Assembly (NCBI RefSeq): GCF_030028105.1
Contig: NC_092384.1
Coordinates: 34,913,553 to 34,977,552, forward strand
Direction of reading: 5' to 3'
From: Mobula birostris
Taxonomy: Eukaryota
DNA: 64,000 bases
Below the pieces are notes generated by a model that was not told where the DNA came from, made no database searches, and saw only the letters and a program-made list of their open reading frames with translations. This document shows positions 4,080 to 62,799 of this stretch, piece after piece. How positions within the stretch are numbered: the first letter of the stretch is position 1; the number at the start of each line of letters is the position of its first letter. A program made the position numbers and the translations under genes.

Positions 4080-5016
4080 TGTTGTATATTTAATATTTCA
4101 GTAATGTTTGAGAAATAATGTAAATATGTTGTCTGATTAAACATTCTTTGTTGTTTACATAATTCATATAAGTTATGTGTAAAAGTACATGAACTACATC
4201 ATAAGTGTGTCCCTCAATGAATTAAAGAACAAAATCGCCACATTTTATCCTTGGGTTAGTGTTATTCTTTTGATTAGTTTTGGATTTACAAGACATAACA
4301 GTGGCAACAAGAAAGCTTTAAAATGAACCCAAAATGACTACCTACCTGTTGAATTGCAATATGTTCTGTCTTTACAAGGGTGAAGAGAAAGAATTTTGAG
4401 TAAAATTAAAGCACAGCAAGTTTTTTTTTTCTTCGAAAGTGTTGTGAGACGCTTAAGTTTAAAGGGCAGAAAATCCATAAACAGTTAGCACTGGGTGATA
4501 ATAATAATAAATAATTAAAGAAAGTGAAAATAGCTGACTACATTGAAAAGGTAGATGCATTCAATTGCACAAAAGATAATTGGCTGATGCATACTGAATG
4601 AATTGAGCAGTATTTGGAAGGAAATACAATAGCCATTGAGAAACAAGTGTCAGTTTTGCTGTGTGTAATAGGTGGAAGAGTTTACAGTTTGCTTAGAAGT
4701 TTAACTGCTCCAACCACACCAGCTGAAAAGAGCTTTGCATATATAATGAAAGTAAAGCAGGAAAATTTTGAAGTAAATTCATTGTTGATTACAGAATATT
4801 AGGTTTCATAAACAGAATCAAAAGGAAAGGAAGTCCATTTCTCGCTTACATGACTGAATTGAACAGATTGTCTGAGCATTGTAAGTTCAAGGATAAGCTT
4901 AATGATGCACTAAGAGGTCATTCAGTTTGTGGAATGTTACAAGAAAGCATTCAAAAATGGCTCCTAACTGAAGCACAACTCACATTTAAAAGAGAAGTTG
5001 AATTCACTGTATCAAT
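4080..5016 (+). mobile_element. Truncated Gypsy-type LTR retrotransposon: LTR (4080-4300), PBS-like gtggcaacaag, decayed gag
   Basis: LTR TGTTGT...CATAACA; gag remnants in ORFs 4614-4802 (YSLLRSLTAPTTPAEKSFA) and 4850-5035 (ELNRLSEHCKF...LRGHSVCG...IQKWLLTE); same family as 17885-21371. Confidence 0.8.
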
Positions 5017-15835: not shown

Positions 15836-17961
15836 CCAAAGCTGAAAAGAATTGCAATGCTGAAACAAAAAGGAAACGACAACAGTGGAAAGAATGAGCA
15901 GCAGACACCTCGACCACAGAACCTTCACGCACTTGCCCCATGTGTGGGAGGTACTTCCTGGCATGGACTGGACTCATCCATCACCTCCGGACACACAAAT
16001 AACAAACACACCTGCTCAGGGATGTCAGTGGTTCTCATCGCTCGCGATGGATGTGCACACACTTTTGAATTAATGAGCAAGCGTACAGGCGTACCTAATA
16101 AAGTGGCCACTGAATGTATTCTGCAAAGTGGAAGTCTGCTTGCCCAGATAAAGTGTTCAATACTTTGAAATGTCAAATACAGTAAGCACAAGCTTTCGTT
16201 CTTTGACCTCCATGCATCTGAAGTGTTAATACATGAAGGAACTGGAAATGTGCAGTGGTCAAATATCATATCCCTGGACAGAACTTCTGTAATTTTTGGG
16301 AAAGAGTGAACGGCTGCTCTGTCTGAGGTCAGCCTTCACCATTTTTCTGATACTTGCCTTGCTCTTATTTAAAGGGGACTTGCCTCAACCAAGCTGACAC
16401 TGGGAACTTGACTCAGTGGGTGCATTTAAAGTGGTTTACATATTTGGCTCCCACTTTGAGACCCCTGACCCTGTCTTACTGGGCACCTCCCACTTCTTCA
16501 GTAACACTCTACTCCACCAGCTAGTTGGCCCACTCAGCCACCGAGGACCCTTCCCAAAAATCTGACTAATAGTCAGAAGATCACACTTCTACTGCCATTC
16601 TAAACTGGCCATTGATTGTACCCTCCTCAATGACTAATTGCCTGGTGCAAATACTGAATGTAATGCCTGACTGCTCTTCATGCCTTTAACCAGTTATTGC
16701 TTTCCATGAACAATTGAACCTGCCCTCATGCTCTTTGCATCTAACTATAGGGTTACCAACGGCAATCTAATCTCAACCTTCCCGCCCAACCCCCAAACAC
16801 ATGGCTGAAATCCAGTTCAAAACCTGACCCCTCTGTGCCAGTCGGTCAATTCTGAATCTCCACCCTTGGGTCCCTTATTCCCCATTTTAGACAGAATTCC
16901 CCACTGTTACCTGAAGTTACCTGTAATGGTGGAGGCCACAATTCAGGAGTGCTTGATTCACTTGTTCGGAAATTCCCACCTATTCAAATGATATCTTCTG
17001 GTGCATACTGTTGCTCAGAGTGCTCGTAAGATGTAAAATACGACTGAAATAGTCTGTTGTCTTCTGGTGATGTAATTTATTAAATTGTTGATTGTCTCTT
17101 TAACCTGCTGGTATTGAAAAAATGACTGGTTCCCAACACAGTTTTGAAGATCCTCAGAGTTAATTTTGGGATTTCAACTGGATGTAAGCATCAAAAACTG
17201 ATTATATGGAAATTTAAAATAACAAACAGTCATGAAAACCATGAAAAATAAACACCAATAATGAGTTCATAAATCAAAGTACTTTTGACAGGGAAGCTTT
17301 AAACAGTCTATCACTCGTACTTGATTACAGAAAGAGAGTATTAAAGATGTACTTTAAGTACATGGATTAGCAAAGCTTTACTAGATCAGGTCCTTGCCTC
17401 AACTTCTTTAACTTGAATTATTTTGTTCAGCTGCCTATCTAAATTCCTTTGACAGGGTAAATTAAGGATAATATTAAATCAAAGGAAGAAGCTTATAAAG
17501 TTGTCAAAAATAGCACTGAGCATGAAGGTGGAGAGTAATTTAGTATTCAGCATAGGAAGACCAAGGAATTGGTAAAGAAGAGCAGGACAGAATGAAAGTG
17601 AACTGCAAGAAATATAAAAATAGACAATAGCAGCAACTATTGGTATATGAGGAGGAAAAGATTAATGTAGTTCCCTCATAGACAGAGATAGTGGAAATGT
17701 TAATGGGGAGTAAAGAAATGGCATATGGAAATGCTCTATATCAACAGCTGTGTGACTCAGTGTAGCTCCGAAGCATCTACAAATTTGCTGATGACCCCAT
17801 TGTAGTTGGCATAATCGTGGATAGTGACAAGGAGATAGGTTAGCTATTTGAGTGGTGTCCTGTCAGCAAATTTGAGCCCAATGTTGTTATGTTTTGTAAC
17901 TTCAAAACTTTAAAATAGTACAAAGGAAAACAAGAGAACCAAGAGACGCAAGTCTAACTTC

Positions 17962-19024
17962 TTGCATCTAACCTTTTCAGAATGGCAGGCAGTGACTAGT
18001 GGGGTACCGCAAGGCTCAGTGCTGGGACCCCAGTTGTTTACAGTATATATTAATGACTTAGATGACAGAATTAAATGCAGCATCTCCAAGTTTGCGAATG
18101 ACAGGAAGCTAGGTGGCAGTGTTAGCTGTGAGGAGAATGGTAAGAGGATGCAGGGTGACTTGGATAGGTTAGGTGAGTGGGCAAATTCATGGCAGATGCA
18201 ATTTAATGTGGATAAATGTGAGGTTATCCACTTTGGTGGCAAGAACAGGAAAACAGATTATTATCTGAATGGTGGCCAATTAGAAAAAGGGGAGGTGCAA
18301 CGAGACCTGGGTGTCACTGTACATCAGTCATTGAAAGTGGGCATGCAGGTACAGCAGGCGGTGAAAAAAGCGAATGGTATGCTGGCATTCATAGCAAGAG
18401 GATTCGAGTACAGGAGCAGGGAGATACTACTGCAGTTGTACAAGGCCTTGGTGAGACCACACCTAGAGTATTGTGTGCAGTTTTGGTCCCCTAATCTGAG
18501 GAAAGACATTCTTGCCATAGAGGGAGTACAAAGAAGATTCACCAGATTGATTGCTGGGATGGCAGGACTTTCATATGATGAAAGACTGGATCGGCTAGGC
18601 TTATACTCACTGGAATTTAGAAGATTCAGGGGGGATCTTATTGAAACGTATAAAATTCTAAAGGGATTGGACAGGCTAGATGCAGGAAGATTGTTCCCAA
18701 TGTTGGGGAAGTCCAGAATGAGGGATCACAGTTTGAGGATAAAGGGGAAGCCTTTTAGGACCGAGATTAGGAAGAACTTTCTTCACACAGAGAGTGGTGA
18801 ATCTGTGGAATTCTCTGCCACAGGAAACAGTTGAGGCCAGTACATTGGCTATATTTAAGAGGGGGTTAGATATGGCCCTTGTGGCTAAAGGGATCAAGGG
18901 GTATGGAGAGAAGGCAGGTACAGGGTTCTGAGTTGGATGATCAGCCATAATCATACTGAATGGCAGTGCAGGCTCGAAGGGCCGAATGGCCTACTCCTGC
19001 ACCTATTTTCTATGTTTCTATGTT
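17962..19024 (+). mobile_element. Young 5'-truncated CR1 inserted into the 3' LTR; 290-aa RT C-terminal ORF (17962-18834)
   Basis: SGVPQGSVLGP...SKFAND (FADD mutated)...RPHLEYCVQFWSP; 3' tail tctatgtttctatgt. Confidence 0.95.
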
Positions 19025-19189
19025 TCATCTTTTACTTTAAGCGAGATGATCACATATCACGTGTTAGCATCATGACATATGCAGTTCACGTATTTGTACA
19101 TATAACCAATAATAAATTATTTAAAAGAACAAGAATGCTTAATCAACTGATATATACCCAAATATTACTGAAATATTAAATACACAACA

Positions 19190-19735
19190 CTCTTTTCTTC
19201 TCATTCCTTGTTCTTCTAATTTGTGCAGCTTGATTTTGGGAAGGTGCATTTAGTTCACTGGCGTATTCTCTTATTAATCCATCTATGGCTCCCGTTATGA
19301 TTTGATCTCTCCTCTTGGTTTCCTCATCCACAACATCATCTGAAGAATCCTCTGTCTCCATTGACTCCTTTATTTTTGGCTTTTCATTCATCCAGCAGGG
19401 CTTTTGACTCTGCATTTACTTTTTCAAACAGCTTTTTGTCTCCCACTTGAAGTTCATGCAATAATCTTAATGCATGCAGAGTAGATTCTGGTTCTTTATA
19501 CTCACAAAAGCTGAATGCTTGCAACTTTCCTGAAGTTCCTTGAACTCTCTTCCAGCTTAAAATCAAGCCACATTTCATAAGTAACTGCTTGATTAATATA
19601 TCAGAAGCTTTCTCAGATATGTTGCCTACAAAATCTGTTGTAGTTGGAGCACTGCTTTGATCACTTTCATGATCCCTCTGGGCAGCATGGTCCAATGTGC
19701 TTTCCAGCCAGAGGCAAAGAGGTTGGCACCAACAC
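19190..19735 (-). pseudogene. RBM25: Processed (intronless) fragment of RNA-binding motif protein 25, covering the RRM and flanks
   Basis: VLVPT..GKHIG / PTTTDFVGNISEKASDILIKQLLMKCGLILSWKRVQGTSGKLQAFSFCEYKEPESTLHALRLLHELQVGDKKL...LDE* / DEETKRRDQIITGAIDGLIREYASELNAPSQ closely match RBM25 as I recall it; W to TGA stop at 19384-19386 plus frameshifts. Confidence 0.93.
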
Positions 19736-19799
19736 CTGTTTGCCTTCTGTTGGCCTTCTGTTGGGATACAATTCATGGCATACAACATGGAGACATTAT

Positions 19800-21000
19800 G
19801 GCATCATCCTTTCTTAATTCACTTTCAGATGACTTTATTGCAGAGGACGTGGATGGAACTCCCATCAAGTTGTAGTTGTCTCAGCCAATCGCACCCCCAA
19901 AACCGTAGTCATCCTGTTTTTTATAAGCTCAATGTGGGTTTTTGGTTGCTGTATGTCACTGTTACAAATGTCATTCCCACAGAAATGATCTTTTCTCCCG
20001 TATAAGTTCTTAGTTAGATATCTGTAGGCTTCAGATATTTGATATCCTTTGAAATGTTTTCAAACTCATTTTATAGAATGACTGAAACAGCCAAGCCTGT
20101 GTCCAATTTCACTTTAATTAATTTGCTGTTCACTTCTGGTGAAAGCAAAACTACTTGTCTCTTGTTAGCTTTCACATTGTAAATCTCAAGCTACCCAGTC
20201 CTGTATCACTCTCATAATTATCAGATTTTTCATGAACAGTATGCAGATTAGTGCTCTTTATGAAACTGCAACTTGACGTTTTACCTTTTACTCTTCCCTG
20301 TACTCTCCATTTATTTTTGTTTGCCCAACATATTCTTTGTATGTATCCTACTTTGCTGCATTTTCTACGAGTTTCACCTTTAAATCTGCATTGACCTAGC
20401 GTATATGTCCCCCTGCCACAATTTGTTTGGCCGGACCAGTTTCTGTTTAAACATTGCGATTTTGTTCAGGCTCACTTTCATTCCTGACTGCAGTTCAATT
20501 CTGTCTCTGGTTGCTGTTTCCATTGATACAGCTATTTCAATGGGTTTTTAAATGTTCTGCTTCACTTATGGGCCATTTTTGAATGTATTCTTGTGAGATT
20601 CCACAAACTAAACAATTTCTCCCTGTGTCATTAAGCCCATTACTGAACTGACAATGGTCAAACGATCTCTTCAATTCAGCCACGTATGCTGAAATGGATT
20701 CCCCTTCCTTTCAGTTCCACTTATGAAACCTAAAGCATTCTGCAATCAATAATGGTTTCAGAATTACTGTCATGACGTCAGCAAAGCTCATTTTGACAGG
20801 TTTGGTTGGAGCAGTTAAATGTCAGAAATAACTGTATACCTTTAAACCCAATGCACTCAGCAACACTGTTACCTGTTTCTCATTGGCTATTCTGTTTGCT
20901 TCAAAATACTGTGTGATTTATATATATATATATATTATACATGAGCCAGTTAACCCTTGAGCAAATGAATGCATCTATCTTTCCATTGTAGCCTGCCACT
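19800..21000 (-). pseudogene. gag and aspartic protease remnants of the LTR element
   Basis: AGYNGKIDAF N-terminus (ORF 20901-21125); FRFHKWN..GESISAYVAELKRS; CRFKGE..KCSKVG zinc-knuckle remnant; LIKVKLDTGLAVSVI protease motif at ~20078-20135. Confidence 0.8.
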
Positions 21001-21520
21001 TCTGCTCCTTTTTTAATGATTTTTATCAATCGGTACTCACTATTTATGAACCCATGAATTCTTCTGCTTGCTGCCTTTTTTTTAAACTCAATTGTGTCTT
21101 CCCCTCTAAAGAACACGTGCTGCACTGCTATTTTTAACTAGAATGTTTCGCTGTGTTTCCACATATAGATAGTCGGCTTTGGTTCATTTTAAAAATACTT
21201 TGATATCACTGTTATGTTCTGCAGCTCCAAAACATTAAACGAATTCAATGAAAAACAACAGAGCTGAGAATGTGAGTCTAACTTCATTTATTTACTCTTA
21301 GCGAAGCGTGCACATACAAACGTATATATACAAGATTACTTGAATATTACTGAAATAATAAATACACAACAAATGTCAGCGAAACCAAAGATCTGATGGT
21401 GGGCTTTAGGAAAAGCTAGTTAGGCAAAAAAGACGCATGTCCTCATTGAAGAATGTGTGGTCGAGGAAATAAGTGGCTTTAAATTAATACTTCCATACTG
21501 CTAACACAAGATGCAACCAT

Positions 21521-34370: not shown

Positions 34371-35728
34371 TTGTGTGACTGTATGTTTACTGATATCTTA
34401 TATTTGCTATATGTGCCTTGTTGGTCTGTGTTTTATACCTGGGCCCTGGAGGAATGCTGTTTCGTTTGATTGTATTCATAGGTATTAATACACGGTTGAA
34501 TAATAATTGAACTTGAACTTGATATAATTGGAATAACTCTACTCATGTACTCAAAATTCTCTTGCAGTAAAAGCCAACAAATCCTTTGAATTCATGATTG
34601 CTTTCTCAACCTGCATGTTAAATTTTAATGATTCTTGTTCAAGCACCCTTAGGTCCCATTGAAAACCAAAGCCTTTCAATATTTTATCATTAAATAGAAA
34701 GTATGTGATTTTTTTTTTCTAACCATGTAGATCATGTCATATTTTCCAGATTATATTTCTATCTACCTTTCACCAATCCTATTTAAATTACATTAAAGTA
34801 TCTATTTATCTTCCCTACAGTTCATACTCTTTCTTTGTAAACTTGGATATTTGTTCCCCTCACTCAAGTCATTGATCTAGACTGTGCATAACTGAGAGCC
34901 CAGACCAATCTTGCAGCACCTCTCTAGTCACAACCTTCTAAATTAAAATAATCCGTTTATTCATCTTTCTTTGTCTGTTTATCAATCTTTAATTCAAGGC
35001 AAAATGCTACCCCTAATTCCCTACACTCTAATGTTGCTGCATGGTAGCTTATCATTATAAGCTAGCAAATAACACAAAAATATAGGAGCACACACAAAAT
35101 GCTGGAGGAACTCAGCAGGGCAGGCAGCATCGATTGAAAAGAGTAAATATAGGTTTGCTTAATATTCAAGAAGGATATAACCCCTTCCAACCTTTTATGC
35201 ACAAGGTTAAAAGAAAACATTCTACTGTAGTGGTGTGCTGCACACAGCGCTAGAATATCGACACGTAGTCGGTGAGTTGGAGTTGTGATAAAAGAGATTT
35301 ATTCAAACTTCGCCATCTCCTTTAAAGCCTTCCCGTTCCCGCCCTCCCTGGGCGGGACTGCTGTGGGGAATGAATATTTGCAGACCCTTCCCGCGCACGG
35401 GATTTTCTGCCTTCTGGTGAAGATAGCCTGGCGCCCTTTTTGGGGCTGGTCTCTCTGCCGGCACGCGCCAGATCGTGTGTGCTAGAAAGTGGGTCGCCAC
35501 ATAACCCACCCCGCCCCCAGAACCGGTGATACATCCCCCAGTGTCCACAGACTGGATCGGCCTCTGTTTGAGTGGTCTGCCCCTACACCGCGGTGCCTGA
35601 GCCTGGACCGGCTGCGCCAAGTCCACATTGGCTGGTTTGAGTCGGTCCACCGTGAAAACCTCCTCTCTACCCCCAATGTCCAGCACGAACGTGGACCCGT
35701 TGTTCCTGATCACCTTAAACGGCCCTTC

Positions 35729-38560
35729 TTAGGGCCGCTGTAGTGGTGCCTGGTGTCCGCCCCGTCGTACAAAAAGAAACTTACAGTTCTGCAGGTCTTT
35801 GGGTACGCAGGTCGGGCTCTGTCCGTGCTGTGAAGTGGGTATGGGGGCCAGGTTACCGAGCCTCTCCCGTAGTCTGTCCAGGACTGCTGTGGGTTCCTCC
35901 TCTTGCCCCCTTGGAGCCGGTATGAACTCTCCTGGGACTACCAGGGGTGCGCCGTACACCAACTTGGCCAACGAGGTGTGCAGATCATCCTTGGGCGCCG
36001 TGCGGTTTCCAAGCAGGACCCAAGGAAGTTCGTCCACCCAGTTAGGTCCTTCCAGGCAGGCCATGCGAGCCGATTTCATGTGACGGTGGAAACGCTCCAC
36101 TAGTCCGTTCGACTGTGGGTGGTAGGCAGTTGTGTGGTGTAGCTGTGATTCTAAAAGGCTGGCCATAGCTGACCACAGGCTGGAGGTGAACTGGGCACCT
36201 CTGTCAGAGGTAATGTGGGCTGGTACCCTGAAGCGTGCTACCCAGGTTGCGATCAGTGCTCGGGCGCAGGATTCGGAGGTGGTGTCGGTGAGCGGGACTG
36301 CCTCTGACCATCTGGTGAACCGGTCTATCATAGTTAGAAGGTACCGTGCTCCTTCTGACACTGGCAGGGGCCCCACGATATCCACATGAATGTGGGCGAA
36401 CCTCCGGCGGGTGGGTTCAAACTGCTGCGTCGGAGCCTTGGTGTGCCGCTGCACCTTGGCCGTTTGGCACTGCATGCGCGTTTTGGCCCATTCACTGATC
36501 TGTTTATGAAGTCCATGCCACACGAACCTGTTGGTGACCAGCCAGACGGTTGTCCTGATGGAGGGGTGTGCTAAGTTGTGAATGGACTTGAAAACTCGCT
36601 GCCGCCAGATTGTTGGGACGACGGGGTGGGGTTGGCCGGTAGCTACATCATACAGTAGGGTCCTCTCACCTGGGCCTACGGGGAGGTCTTGGAGCTGCAA
36701 ACCGGAGACAGTAGTCCTGTAACTGGGGATCTCAGCGTCTGCCTGCTGTGCCTCTGCCAGCGCTGCATAGTCCACCCCCTGGGACAGGGTCTGTATGGTA
36801 GATCTGGATAGTGCGTCCGCCACGATGTTGTCCTTTCCAGAGACAGGCCGGATGTCCATCGTGTACTCGGAGATGTAGGACAGATGTCGCTGCTGGCGGG
36901 ACGACCAGGGGTCGGACACCTTAGTGAACACAAAGGTAAGTGGTTTGTGGTCTGTAAACGCAGTGAAGGGCCTACCTTCTAAGAAGTATCTGAAATGCCG
37001 GATTGCCAGGTATAGTGCAAATAGCTCCCAGTTGAAAGCACTGTATTTGAGTTCGGGTGGTCGTAGGTGTTTGCTGAAGAACGCCAGGGGTTGCCAGCGA
37101 CCCTCGATGCGTTGCTCCAGCACTCCACTGACTGCTGTGTTGGATGCATCCACCGTGAGGGCAGTAGGAACGTCCGATCTGGGGTGCACTAGCATCCAAG
37201 GTTTCTTTGGTTTTAACGAAAGCAGCCGCAGCCTCTTTGTCCCAGGTAATGTCCTTCCTTTACCCGACATCAGGGTGAACAGGGGGCGCATGATTCAGGC
37301 TGCTGAGGGGAGGAAACGGTGGTAGAAGTTCACCATACCCACGAATTCCTGCAGGCCTTTAGTTGTGTTGGGTCGGGGGAAGTGGCGGACCGTGTCTACC
37401 TTGGCCGGCAAAGGGGTTGCCCCGTCTCTAGTAATCCTGTGGCCCAGGACAGTCGATAGTGTCGAGTCTGAACTGGCATTTGGCCGGGTTGATTGTAAGG
37501 CCAAATTCGCTCAGTCGGGTGTAGACTTGACGGAGGTGGGACAGATGGTCCTGACGACTACTGCTGGCTATGAGGATGTCGTCCAAATAGATGAATGCAA
37601 AGTCCAGGTTGCATCCCACTGCGTCCATTAGCCGCTGGAAAGTTTGTGCGGCATTCTTTAGGCCAAATGGCATTCGGAGGAATTCAAAAAGTCCGAACAG
37701 GGTGATGAGTGCTATTTTGGGGATGTCATCTGGATATACCGGGATTTGATGGTATCCCTGGACTTGGTCTACCTTGGAAAAGATTCTTGCGCCATGTAGG
37801 TTTGCTGCAGTCTTGAATGTGCGGCACAGGGTAGTGGTCTGGTGTTGTAGCCTCGTTCAGCCTGCGGTAGTCGCCACATGGTCTCCAGCCCTCCGTTGCC
37901 TTGGGCACCATGTGTAGGGGGGAGGCCCATGGGCTGTCGGACTGTCGTATGATCCCCAATTCCTCCATCTTCTTGAACTCCTCCTTCACCAGTCGGAGCT
38001 TGTCCGGGGGGAGCCTTCGAGCACGGGCATGGAGGGGTGGTCCCTGGGTCAGGATGTGATGCTGTACTCCATGTCTGGGCATGGCTGCTGTGAACTGCTG
38101 TGTCAGAACTGATGGGAAAACTGCCAGGACCCTGGTGAATTCGTCGTCGGATAGCGTGATGGAGTCCAGGTGTGGGGCTGGCAACTTGGCTTCACTCAGG
38201 GAGAACGTTTGAAAAGTCTTGGCGTGGACTAGTTGCTTCCCTTGCAGGTCGACCAGCAGGCTGTGGACTCGCAGAAAATCCGCCCCCAGGAGTGGTTGGG
38301 CCACGGCGGCCAGTGTGAAGTCCCACGTGAACCGGCTAGAGCTGAACTGTAGCCGCACCGTGCGGATGCTGTAGGTTCGTATTGTGCTGCCATTTGCGGC
38401 CCTCAGGGTGGGTCCCGGTTCTCTGTTGTGGGTGTCGTAACTCGTTGGAGGTAAGATGCTGATCTCCGCTCCGGTGTCGACCAAAAAACGGTGTCCTGAC
38501 TGCTTGTCCCAGACGTACAGGAGGCTGTCCTGATGGCCAGCCACCGTAGCCATCAGTGGC
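35729..38560 (-). pseudogene. Gypsy pol (protease, RT, RNase H, integrase), frameshifted
   Basis: FLVDTGAEISILP; SPWASPLHMVPK, RPCGDYRRLN; MPFGLKNAAQTFQR, YLDD; VDAS, YSAF..EL, FTDHKPL; HHCC-type region, HVDIVGPL, SDRG.QF, AYHPQSNGLVERFH. Confidence 0.95.
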
Positions 38561-39295: not shown

Positions 39296-39602
39296 ATTGT
39301 AGCGGTGTGCTACACACAGCGCTAGAATAACGACATGTAGTCGGTGAGTTGGAGTTGAGATAAAAGAGATTTATTCAAACTTCGCGGCCTCCTTTAAAGC
39401 CTTCCCATTTTCCCCCCTCCCTGGGTGAGACTGCTGTGGGGAATGAATATTCGCAGACCCTTCCCACGCGCTGGATTTTCCCCCTGCTGGTGAAGATAGC
39501 CTGGCGCCCTTTTTGGGGCCGGCCTCTCTGCCGGCGCGCGCCGGTTTGTGTGTGCTAGAAAGTGGGTCACCACACTACCATCTTTTCCTACTATATATCC
39601 TA

Positions 39603-62556: not shown

Positions 62557-62745
62557 TGAACAAGAGAAAATCTACAAATACTGTAAATCTGAACAACACA
62601 CACAAAACGCTAGAGGAACCCAGCAGGCCAGGCAGCATCAATGGAAAAGAGTAGAGTTGACGTTTCGGGCTGAAACGTTGACTGTACTTTTTTCCATAGA
62701 TGTTGCCTGGCCTGCTGAGTTCCTCCTGCATTTTGTTTGTGTTAC
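62557..62745. mobile_element. PLE-derived fold-back (palindromic) insertion with 15-bp TSD
   Basis: Arms ~62595-62665 and ~62672-62743 are reverse complements centred on gtttcgggctgaaac; TSD tctga(g/a)aatccttca at 62542-62556 and 62746-62760. Confidence 0.85.
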
Positions 62746-62799
62746 TCTGAAAATCCTTCAGGGAGTTTGTTGAGTTTTAATAAATTGAGATAATTTAGT

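Follow-up and report, generated by a model that had tools for sequence, protein, structure and literature searches.

The window, i.e., the whole stretch of 64,000 nucleotides of Mobula birostris DNA that was analysed, contains on its minus strand a Ty3/Gypsy LTR element that keeps gag and protease and is flanked by a 5-bp target-site duplication (TSD) (Table 1). It falls in the K02A2.6-like group and may belong to the Mag-like clade. A preliminary description of this DNA had reported gag, protease and the TSD AATGT on both sides; the sequence agrees, and residues 27-390 of a full-length Gypsy Gag-Pol protein (P0125) match gag and protease at 20908-19843 (tblastn E 1e-41). Pfam searches of the decayed gag and protease fragments matched neither. 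The further claim that an interrupted frame, of a putative Rex1 LINE, rejoins over the TSD is also correct, as the LINE reverse transcriptase frame around the element, on the plus strand, reads on across it.

The 3' end is more complex than was thought. The ends given for the 3' LTR (19189-17885) stand, but only 246 bp is LTR, and the remainder is a CR1-type LINE piece of ~1.06 kb (17962-19020) with 92-93% identity to copies elsewhere. The K2P distance between the 5' and 3' LTRs is 0.25 (162 columns). A putative primer-binding site and a polypurine tract are visible in sister copies; in the window copy the former is degenerate and the latter mostly deleted. The host-derived cargo does adjoin the 3' LTR directly, as described, but it does so because ~320 bp that sister copies retain, comprising the integrase tail and the polypurine tract, is gone from this copy. 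The contact is thus a secondary deletion, and the original capture rejoined the integrase tail. The window copy is old and broken.

Table 1. Features of the element and its RBM25 cargo in the window.
Feature	Positions	Strand	Remarks
TSD AATGT, 5' side of element	21372..21376	.	From sequence
5' LTR, 162 bp, TG...CA ends	21210..21371	-	Internal deletion relative to ~245-bp family LTR
Degenerate primer-binding-site position	21197..21209	-	TGG-type motif at equivalent spot in sister copies
gag, start approximate, disrupted by stops and frameshifts	20205..21000	-	tblastn with full-length Gypsy Gag-Pol P0125/P0143
Aspartic protease (DTG motif) and protease-RT spacer	19804..20190	-	Reaches sister-family RT start
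5' switch point at RBM25 exon 3 end: final 10 nt (9 kept in this copy)	19795..19803	-	Includes 7-nt pol-start microhomology
RBM25 48-nt cassette exon X and 11-nt duplication	19736..19794	-	Host exon G000:C1:154450900-154450947
RBM25 exon 4	19576..19735	-	Host G000:C1:154454372-154454542
RBM25 exon 5	19518..19575	-	Host G000:C1:154456280-154456337
RRM domain match, across exons 4-6	19429..19632	-	Pfam PF00076, E 1.1e-7
RBM25 exon 6, interrupted by a stop codon (19384-19386)	19357..19517	-	Host G000:C1:154458281-154458441
RBM25 exon 7 to ~19223, then purine-rich exon 9/10 remnants	19194..19356	-	Remnants from the family's nested deletions
3' LTR, first part	19021..19189	-	Integrase tail and most of polypurine tract absent before it
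CR1-type LINE piece inside 3' LTR	17962..19020	+	Younger, foreign to element; RVT_1 E 1.5e-9
3' LTR, last part, CA end	17885..17961	-	
TSD AATGT, 3' side of element	17880..17884	.	From sequence

The cargo is spliced RBM25 sequence (19803-19194, minus strand). What had been taken for an unassigned linker of ~60 bp is 9 nt of exon 3 and a 48-nt cassette exon with an 11-nt duplication, so that the cargo measures 610 bp and not ~546 bp; the presence of the whole RRM (PF00076) in the sense of gag had been recognised correctly. The peptide of the cassette exon also occurs in proteins P0001 and P0122. Disruption by a stop and frameshifts, likewise proposed, is found as one stop, deletions of 1, 11 and 8 nt and the duplication of 11 nt. 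The window cargo has no poly(A) or TSD of its own and its end falls inside the coding sequence, which, as had been suggested, argues against LINE-mediated retroposition. Longer cargo, to residue ~300, was confirmed in other copies.

The parent RBM25 gene lies on a different contig from the window and has multiple exons with canonical GT-AG boundaries. The proposed loss of introns is therefore real: the parent segment is not a single exon, and four whole introns (3424, 1737, 1943 and 4797 nt) are missing from the window cargo. We located this gene with the RBM25 C-terminus as query. With a full-length RBM25 query, matches to element copies drowned out the parent gene, and the matches of a PWI family search were SRRM1-like and PRPF3-like exons, not RBM25.

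A sister family carries pol in place of the cargo: the 15-mer upstream of the junction, followed by pol, has 381 exact matches. Its pol has Pfam matches to reverse transcriptase (RT), RNase H and integrase in the order PR-RT-RNaseH-IN; the best PDB match is Ty3 Gag-Pol, and the nearest proteins are named K02A2.6-like. The commonest letter differs between sister and cargo copies at 3 of 1,427 gag-protease columns. From junction to tail, the uninterrupted sister copies L118 and L109 have 2,479 and 2,517 nt, respectively, that are absent from cargo copies; ~2.5 kb of pol has been exchanged for ~1.07 kb of RBM25 mRNA, from the end of exon 3 to the start of exon 10. Internal ORFs are therefore replaced rather than interrupted in cargo copies, and the lack of pol marks the window copy as a non-autonomous derivative. 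The full capture ends ~28 nt inside exon 10 and is followed by the integrase tail. Comparison of the present-day host gene with decayed sister copies reveals exact microhomology of 7 nt (TGCCACA) at the 5' switch and 9 nt (GAGAAGAAA) at the 3' switch, the latter a purine-rich site. Microhomology at both points supports template switching by reverse transcriptase, the mechanism originally put forward. In copy L017, the integrase resumes ~250 nt earlier, as expected of a recombinant with a pol-bearing RNA. What looked like a 550-nt integrase deletion common to the sister copies turned out to be extra sequence inserted in the copy used as reference (L115).

The hybrid is abundant. The 23-mer spanning the protease-RBM25 junction has 558 matches in the genome, a lower bound on copy number, and its reversed control has none, so neither chance nor misassembly accounts for it. 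The copy number is likely 1,200-2,900, and the hybrid makes up about a third of the whole element family. Copies are spread over many contigs with differing flanks, and cargo begins at one common mRNA base in 71 of 100 loci. At 17 loci both ends could be called; here the two TSDs match at five of five positions in 2 loci, four of five in 6 and three of five in 3, and all are different. The preliminary description had named further copies with identical junctions but different TSDs as proof of an amplified non-autonomous family, and this is what the matches provide. Its concern about misassembly is also answered, because the junction occurs at hundreds of loci and is present in the reads of another organism as well: there, one contig spans the edge between 5' LTR and flank and another the protease-cargo junction. 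Given an identical junction at more than 550 places, one captured message was likely multiplied by enzyme-carrying relatives.

Copies are ~10% diverged and star-like, and deletion classes are separated by just 2 columns, both CpG. A FastTree of 97 of the 109 gag-protease rows is star-like too, and is uninformative, being distorted by non-homologous flanks. A protein search for annotated proteins spanning the junction gave 11 candidates, none at E<=0.01. The suggestion of a general gene-transducing family is not supported, as none of 30 members sampled by their 3' tail carries other cargo. Six of these 30 are cargo-free deletion derivatives that were amplified too, and cargo is therefore not required for success.

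A Gag-PR-RRM fusion had also been envisaged. The 5' fusion is indeed in frame (modal distance 183 nt), and one natural copy (L197) has an open frame of 333 aa that starts in the protease spacer and continues through the RRM, but the usefulness of such a protein is not supported, since a selection signal is absent. Upstream of the protease spacer, modal-distance tests gave gag-to-protease distances spread evenly over phases, and 221 nt versus 222 nt, so a column test was used there instead; across 1,250 nt of gag-protease it flagged a single column of stop type, and this column is badly aligned. In a screen of ~100 of the more than 1,000 copies, N:S is 1.03 of the neutral expectation (86 copies), and the frame is open across mRNA positions 190-609 in 6 of the 86. 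There was no significant synonymous excess among open copies; the best P (0.003) belongs to a copy with a stop and a frameshift. The cargo copies decay neutrally, and no selection is seen on the RRM. They are 82-90% identical to host exons (mean divergence 13%). The host's divergence at synonymous positions, 16 of 166 sites, is the same as that of the copies (~10%); capture and burst were therefore nearly simultaneous, and unchanged amino acids need no selection. Where exon 7 ends, three seeming amino-acid differences are explained by a change on the host side and by a shared deletion; they are not substitutions in the element.

Nested deletions have shortened the cargo and given rise to amplifying deletion subfamilies. 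Exons X-6 are retained in 54-58 of 59 junction-selected copies, and exons 8 and 9 in 8 and 5 of these, respectively. The tail phase is as in the longest copies in 19 of 31 short-class copies. Both this phase retention and the keeping of exons X-6 while 8-9 were mostly lost count against the view of the cargo as a passenger.

We consider it highly probable that pol was swapped for RBM25 mRNA by template switching and that the product was then multiplied in trans by the sister family. Host RBM25 mRNA would have been co-packaged with element RNA, and the reverse transcriptase would have switched template twice, onto and off the spliced message. This is the likely route by which RT, RNase H and almost the entire integrase came to be replaced by an RBM25 piece in frame with gag-protease, in a capture that was longer than the window's and rejoined the integrase tail rather than the LTR. 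The pol-bearing family then likely mobilised the hybrid to more than 550, and probably 1,200-2,900, sites. Its success would be due to LTRs, primer-binding site, gag-protease and polypurine tract being kept on a shorter RNA, with the RBM25 piece as a passenger. It is important to note that passenger status is a default assumption and not a result; because the burst is star-like, selection on cargo in the source elements could leave no trace.

The captured RRM might instead have been useful, e.g., if, once released from a Gag-protease-RRM polyprotein, it helped the hybrid RNA to be exported or packaged or made it more stable; this would explain why the hybrid makes up a third of the family. We regard this as unlikely. 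The in-frame 5' fusion, the open frame in L197 and the single, poorly aligned stop-type column fit this explanation, as do the position of the cargo in the former place of RT, the keeping of RRM exons with loss of RE-rich ones, and the fact that, comparing commonest letters with the host and excluding CpG decay and a shared deletion, no amino-acid change is assignable to the element lineage. However, an in-frame join has a one-in-three chance of arising, purine-rich RE repeats are readily deleted via microhomology, and near-simultaneous capture and burst explain the lack of change without selection. Moreover, cargo-free derivatives were amplified as well, and constraint is seen in no copy, with so few open in frame. 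It is correspondingly improbable that the hybrid RNA replicated better thanks to an RRM released from the in-frame fusion, and that gene capture thereby turned the element into a parasite of its own helper, a germline counterpart of an oncogene-transducing defective retrovirus.

A two-step origin, in which a LINE placed a 5'-truncated processed RBM25 pseudogene in pol and microhomology deletions later removed its 3' end, its poly(A) and the remaining pol, is quite improbable. LINEs are abundant in this DNA, the family readily deletes at the same purine-rich 3' site, and 5' microhomology is also known to accompany LINE truncation. However, none of 100 copies goes further than ~30 nt into exon 10, none of them carries poly(A), a TSD around the cargo or RT-RH-IN beside cargo at the common junction, and two events are required where one is enough. 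Finally, the cargo could give, or have given, rise to small RNAs that target RBM25 mRNA, either as an anti-silencing capture or co-opted as in Plutella Pxyfem, which we consider very unlikely. The cargo is in sense orientation, and RBM25 is a splicing factor that is not known as a piRNA-pathway gene. There are precedents in Drosophila telomeric elements (PMC13534243) and Pxyfem (PMC9674220), and the copies' identity to host exons would suit this role, but the former report describes almost no targeting at ~79-82% identity. Nothing was found in favour of an assembly artefact or segmental duplication; its probability is negligible, and it is refuted by the many contigs, the different TSDs and flanks, and the second organism's bridging contigs.

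Non-autonomous LTR elements that keep gag, lack RT and integrase and need a helper include TR-GAG of plants, and the RBM25 hybrid resembles them in all these respects. Defective retroviruses that transduce oncogenes encode gag-onc fusions; the hybrid shares the in-frame gag-host fusion, but has no env and shows neither an infectious phase nor a benefit from its host cargo. The mechanism of LTR-mediated retrocopying has already been published (Tan et al. 2016, PMC5131818). As in the retrocopies described in that paper, partial spliced mRNA replaces internal ORFs, with microsimilarity at both switches (median 6 bp in their set); both LTRs are present, the insert lacks poly(A) and a TSD and is in sense with an in-frame tendency, and secondary retroposition from a single switch event and a recurrent switch-back site are seen. 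The six species listed there do not include a cartilaginous fish. The scale is much larger: the same source describes two Drosophila retrocopies inserted at more than a single site (18 sites for 9 retrocopies), whereas copies of the RBM25 hybrid number no fewer than 558 and probably 1,200-2,900, make up roughly a third of its family and include nested amplifying deletion classes.

Maize Bs1, as summarised in that text (PMC5131818), is likewise an LTR element with spliced host fragments and switch points common to all copies. However, it has 1-5 copies and three parent genes, whereas the hybrid has one parent and hundreds of times more copies and, unlike Bs1, is decaying in all copies sampled. 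Pxyfem (PMC9674220) is also a multicopy template-switch retrocopy beside LTR-element sequence, but its 11 copies form two tandem clusters, both W-linked, and have a silencing function, whereas the hybrid is dispersed and shows no function. Host gene fragments are also carried by whole families of Drosophila telomeric elements (PMC13534243), but these are non-LTR elements with 140-235-bp fragments of piRNA genes, not spliced cDNA in place of pol. Family-wide cargo is similarly described for a fungal hAT element (10.1101/550798), with histone H3 in hundreds of dead copies, but by genomic capture in a DNA transposon and not by replacement of pol with spliced cDNA.

One template-switch capture can thus found a vertebrate repeat family of more than 1,000 copies, where the animal cases of Tan et al. 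have one to few. This single family also preserves, in a form that can be dated, the capture itself, dependence on a helper, recombination with that helper and the stepwise loss of cargo. RBM25 annotation and read mapping will be confounded in these genomes. Many shared insertions are usable as markers among related species, and an old RBM25 splice form with the cassette exon is fossilised in the element.

Read along the minus strand, the element at 17885-21371 starts with a 5' LTR, continues through gag, protease and sequence resembling RBM25, and closes with a 3' LTR. With full-length proteins as queries, residues 27-390 of the Gypsy Gag-Pol protein P0125 match positions 20908-19843 (E 1e-41), and the rest of P0125 has no match elsewhere in the element. 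The preliminary description reported a 5-bp TSD and an interrupted frame rejoining across it; indeed, AATGT is present on both sides, and a plus-strand LINE RT frame continues past it. Its assignment of the cargo to RBM25, including the RRM, also holds: the best protein relatives are RBM25, the top one being a shark protein at 79%, and the RRM family is matched within the cargo. The direct contact that it described between cargo and 3' LTR is seen in this copy, but is secondary, because the copy has lost ~320 bp of integrase tail and PPT. Further damage to the cargo comes from a stop, a duplication and three deletions.

Coordinates of the window copy and of the RBM25 cassette exon in the parent gene
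Feature	Position	Strand	Details
5' LTR	21371-21210	minus	162 bp; window sequence
3' LTR, split	19189 (start) to 17885 (end)	minus	246 bp; window sequence
CR1-type LINE piece splitting the 3' LTR	17962-19020		younger; within window
RBM25 cargo	19803-19194	minus	83% identity
RRM family match	19632-19429		E 1.1e-7
RBM25 cassette exon	G000:C1:154450900-154450947		48 nt; in-frame; between exons 3 and 4

A search with the RBM25 C-terminus gives a single parent locus (contig G000:C1, 154.44-154.49 Mb), where ten exons further upstream are bounded by canonical AG/GT sites and together read as an open RBM25 frame. The window cargo joins the last bases of exon 3, the cassette exon and exons 4-7 without introns. 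The proposed intron loss is thereby confirmed against a multi-exon parent: introns of 3424, 1737, 1943 and 4797 nt are absent from the cargo, as are the 5838 nt that separate the cassette exon from exon 3. What had been left as an unassigned linker is in fact this cassette exon. Its peptide is identical in the shark protein P0001, is flanked by exon 3 and exon 4 sequence in protein P0122, and is missing from the bony-vertebrate proteins examined (P0002, P0005, P0007, P0017 and P0032). Together with the best protein relative, this shared exon suggests that the host is a cartilaginous fish. A tandem acceptor ahead of exon 4 is open in shark and contains a stop in the M. birostris genome. Two LTRs of the cargo-bearing family are also present on the opposite strand, 36-64 kb ahead of where the RBM25 coding sequence begins (G000:C1:154378701-154378934 and 154406317-154406577), probably by chance, given the size of the family.

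Relatives that retain pol indicate where the cargo was exchanged. The upstream 15-mer of the cargo copies, when followed by a pol-type motif instead, has 381 exact matches, and these pol-type loci match RT, RNase H and integrase, arranged as in Gypsy elements. The commonest letter differs between cargo and pol-type copies (80 and 29 rows) at only 3 of 1,427 gag-protease columns, and they therefore form one family. At the 5' switch, TGCCACA is common to the pol start and the exon 3 end; at the 3' switch, GAGAAGAAA is common to the integrase tail and the exon 10 start. Between these points, uninterrupted sister copies (L109, L118) have ~2.5 kb, and the longest cargo copies (L035, L036, L043) have ~1.07 kb of mRNA, from exon 3 to exon 10. 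It was also suggested that family members be screened for other cargo. Among the first 30 of 291 loci chosen by their 3' tail alone, none carries any: 10 have RBM25, 14 have integrase and 6 have an internal deletion onto the same purine-rich site. A cargo-free subfamily (L169, L172, L178, L180, L183, L186, L111, L124) shares a deletion that begins in the integrase zinc-finger region and ends at this site, which is, on this evidence, a hot spot for switching back. One cargo copy, L017, returns to integrase ~250 nt earlier than the others, and would likely be a recombinant with a co-packaged pol-bearing RNA.

In the 4.0-Gb genome, the cargo DNA query gave 2,889 first-look candidates; of the 40 that were scored, 39 are other loci, at 82-85% identity. 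With one mismatch allowed, a 23-mer spanning the 5' junction is present 558 times (control: 0), and a stricter gapped pattern 154 times. These patterns occur in 14/40 and 5/40 loci picked independently of them, which scales to ~1,600 and ~1,200 cargo copies, both floors because those 40 loci were top scorers. The same mRNA base starts the cargo in 71 of 100 loci (one a duplicate), which argues for one capture. As anticipated, copies sharing the junction have different TSDs: 40 loci were fetched at 7 kb, and in the 17 with both ends called all TSDs differ (matches of 5/5 in 2 loci, 4/5 in 6, 3/5 in 3 and 1/5 in 2, with 4 lacking a call at the TG start). LTR-LTR K2P distances are 0.15-0.33 (median 0.23) in 12 cargo loci, 0.25 in the window copy, and 0.19 and 0.22 in two sister loci; 94 cargo copies diverge on average by 10% from each column's commonest letter. 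Capture of a host mRNA by an LTR element and amplification of the chimera are both very probable.

The cargo subsequently shrank in steps. Of the 84 copies that could be anchored in exon 7, 64 share one deletion that removes everything between late exon 7 and the beginning of exon 9 (15 others resemble the host and 5 are unclear), and additional shared deletions define short, medium and long classes (63/99 copies measurable), the window copy being short. Since breakpoints are common to unrelated loci, the deletion derivatives must themselves have been copied.

The 5' junction is in frame, with a modal 183 nt between anchors and 31/64 copies in phase. Two natural copies keep the frame through it: L003 (285 aa) and L197 (G000:C1:42352000-42357000; 333 aa, running from protease spacer through RRM to tail). 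The junction phase has one stop-type column, badly aligned, within 1,250 nt upstream; the other phases have 38 and 48 over the whole alignment. Judging from these sequence features, the source element likely coded for a Gag-protease-RBM25(RRM) product whose frame does not match that of the integrase tail, where it ends.

It might then seem that the captured RRM was useful to the element, and there are weak hints of this: of 59 copies selected by the junction, 54-58 retain exons X (the cassette exon) to 6, 8 retain exon 8 and 5 retain exon 9; the tail phase is preserved in 19 of 31 copies of the short class. However, all this is accounted for equally well by purine-rich repeats and by a chance of 1 in 3. 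Moreover, N:S counted copy by copy amounts to 1.03 of what neutrality predicts in the 86 of 103 copies that span the RRM (1.2 by a cruder site count), and none of the 6 of these 86 that are open in frame has a significant synonymous excess; L197 has 27 non-synonymous and 16 synonymous differences (P 0.08, not significant). We regard usefulness as improbable. Between the host and the commonest cargo letters, 16 codon columns differ synonymously and 8 differ otherwise; the latter resolve as 5 CpG-decay artefacts, 2 columns of the shared deletion and 1 host-side change, where the shark protein carries the element's residue. Because synonymous divergence to the host (9.6%) equals copy divergence, and just 2 columns, each of them CpG, separate the deletion classes, the capture, the deletions and the burst came in too quick a succession for selection to be recorded.

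Words of the window copy are present in 20 sequencing runs of 11 studies, and reads of four runs were compared, including those of organisms B, C and H. These three also cover unique flank and so behave as DNA (the library kind of X9 and X17 is unrecorded). In organism B, the 5' LTR-flank edge is spanned by a contig of single-copy depth (record 24) and the protease-cargo junction by a second contig (record 22); therefore, the insertion is shared with B, the only one of the three in which the window insertion itself is bridged. In all three organisms, several distinct contigs span joins between RBM25 exons (records 14, 15, 19, 28). Flanks differ from the window at 19/293 letters in C and 31/401 in H, which is below the copy age, and so the burst likely predates the splits from both.

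LTR-mediated mRNA capture is described by Tan et al. 2016 (PMC5131818) for fly, mosquito, zebrafish, chicken and mammals, where secondary retroposition reached a few sites. The RBM25 family probably shares this mechanism, but its copy scale is unusual: Bs1 has 1-5 copies (as cited there) and Pxyfem 11 (PMC9674220). Whole families with a captured gene are known among the telomeric non-LTR elements of Drosophila (PMC13534243); another example is a fungal hAT transposon, which has H3 in hundreds of copies (10.1101/550798). In the open-access literature searched, there is no report of RBM25 inside an LTR element. RBM25 is absent from the main text and three supplementary files of the VGP Phase I preprint, whose retrocopy filter discards candidates overlapping repeats by at least 40%. 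The observation is real and well supported; the mechanism is already known, and the scale is unusual.

The window contains other repeats. A second member of the same LTR family (LTR, PBS, gag; 70-74% identical) lies at 4080-5016 on the plus strand, truncated by a LINE. A different Gypsy pol, with RT, RNase H and integrase, is more remotely related (22-38% to the P0125-type proteins); it lies at 35828-38502 on the minus strand, flanked by direct repeats (35226-35506 and 39298-39579) that are 85-90% alike, and is likely another LTR element. Finally, an inverted repeat at 62588-62750 has 79-nt arms, 5 nt apart and 82% complementary, which look like a SINE-like repeat occurring four times in the window.
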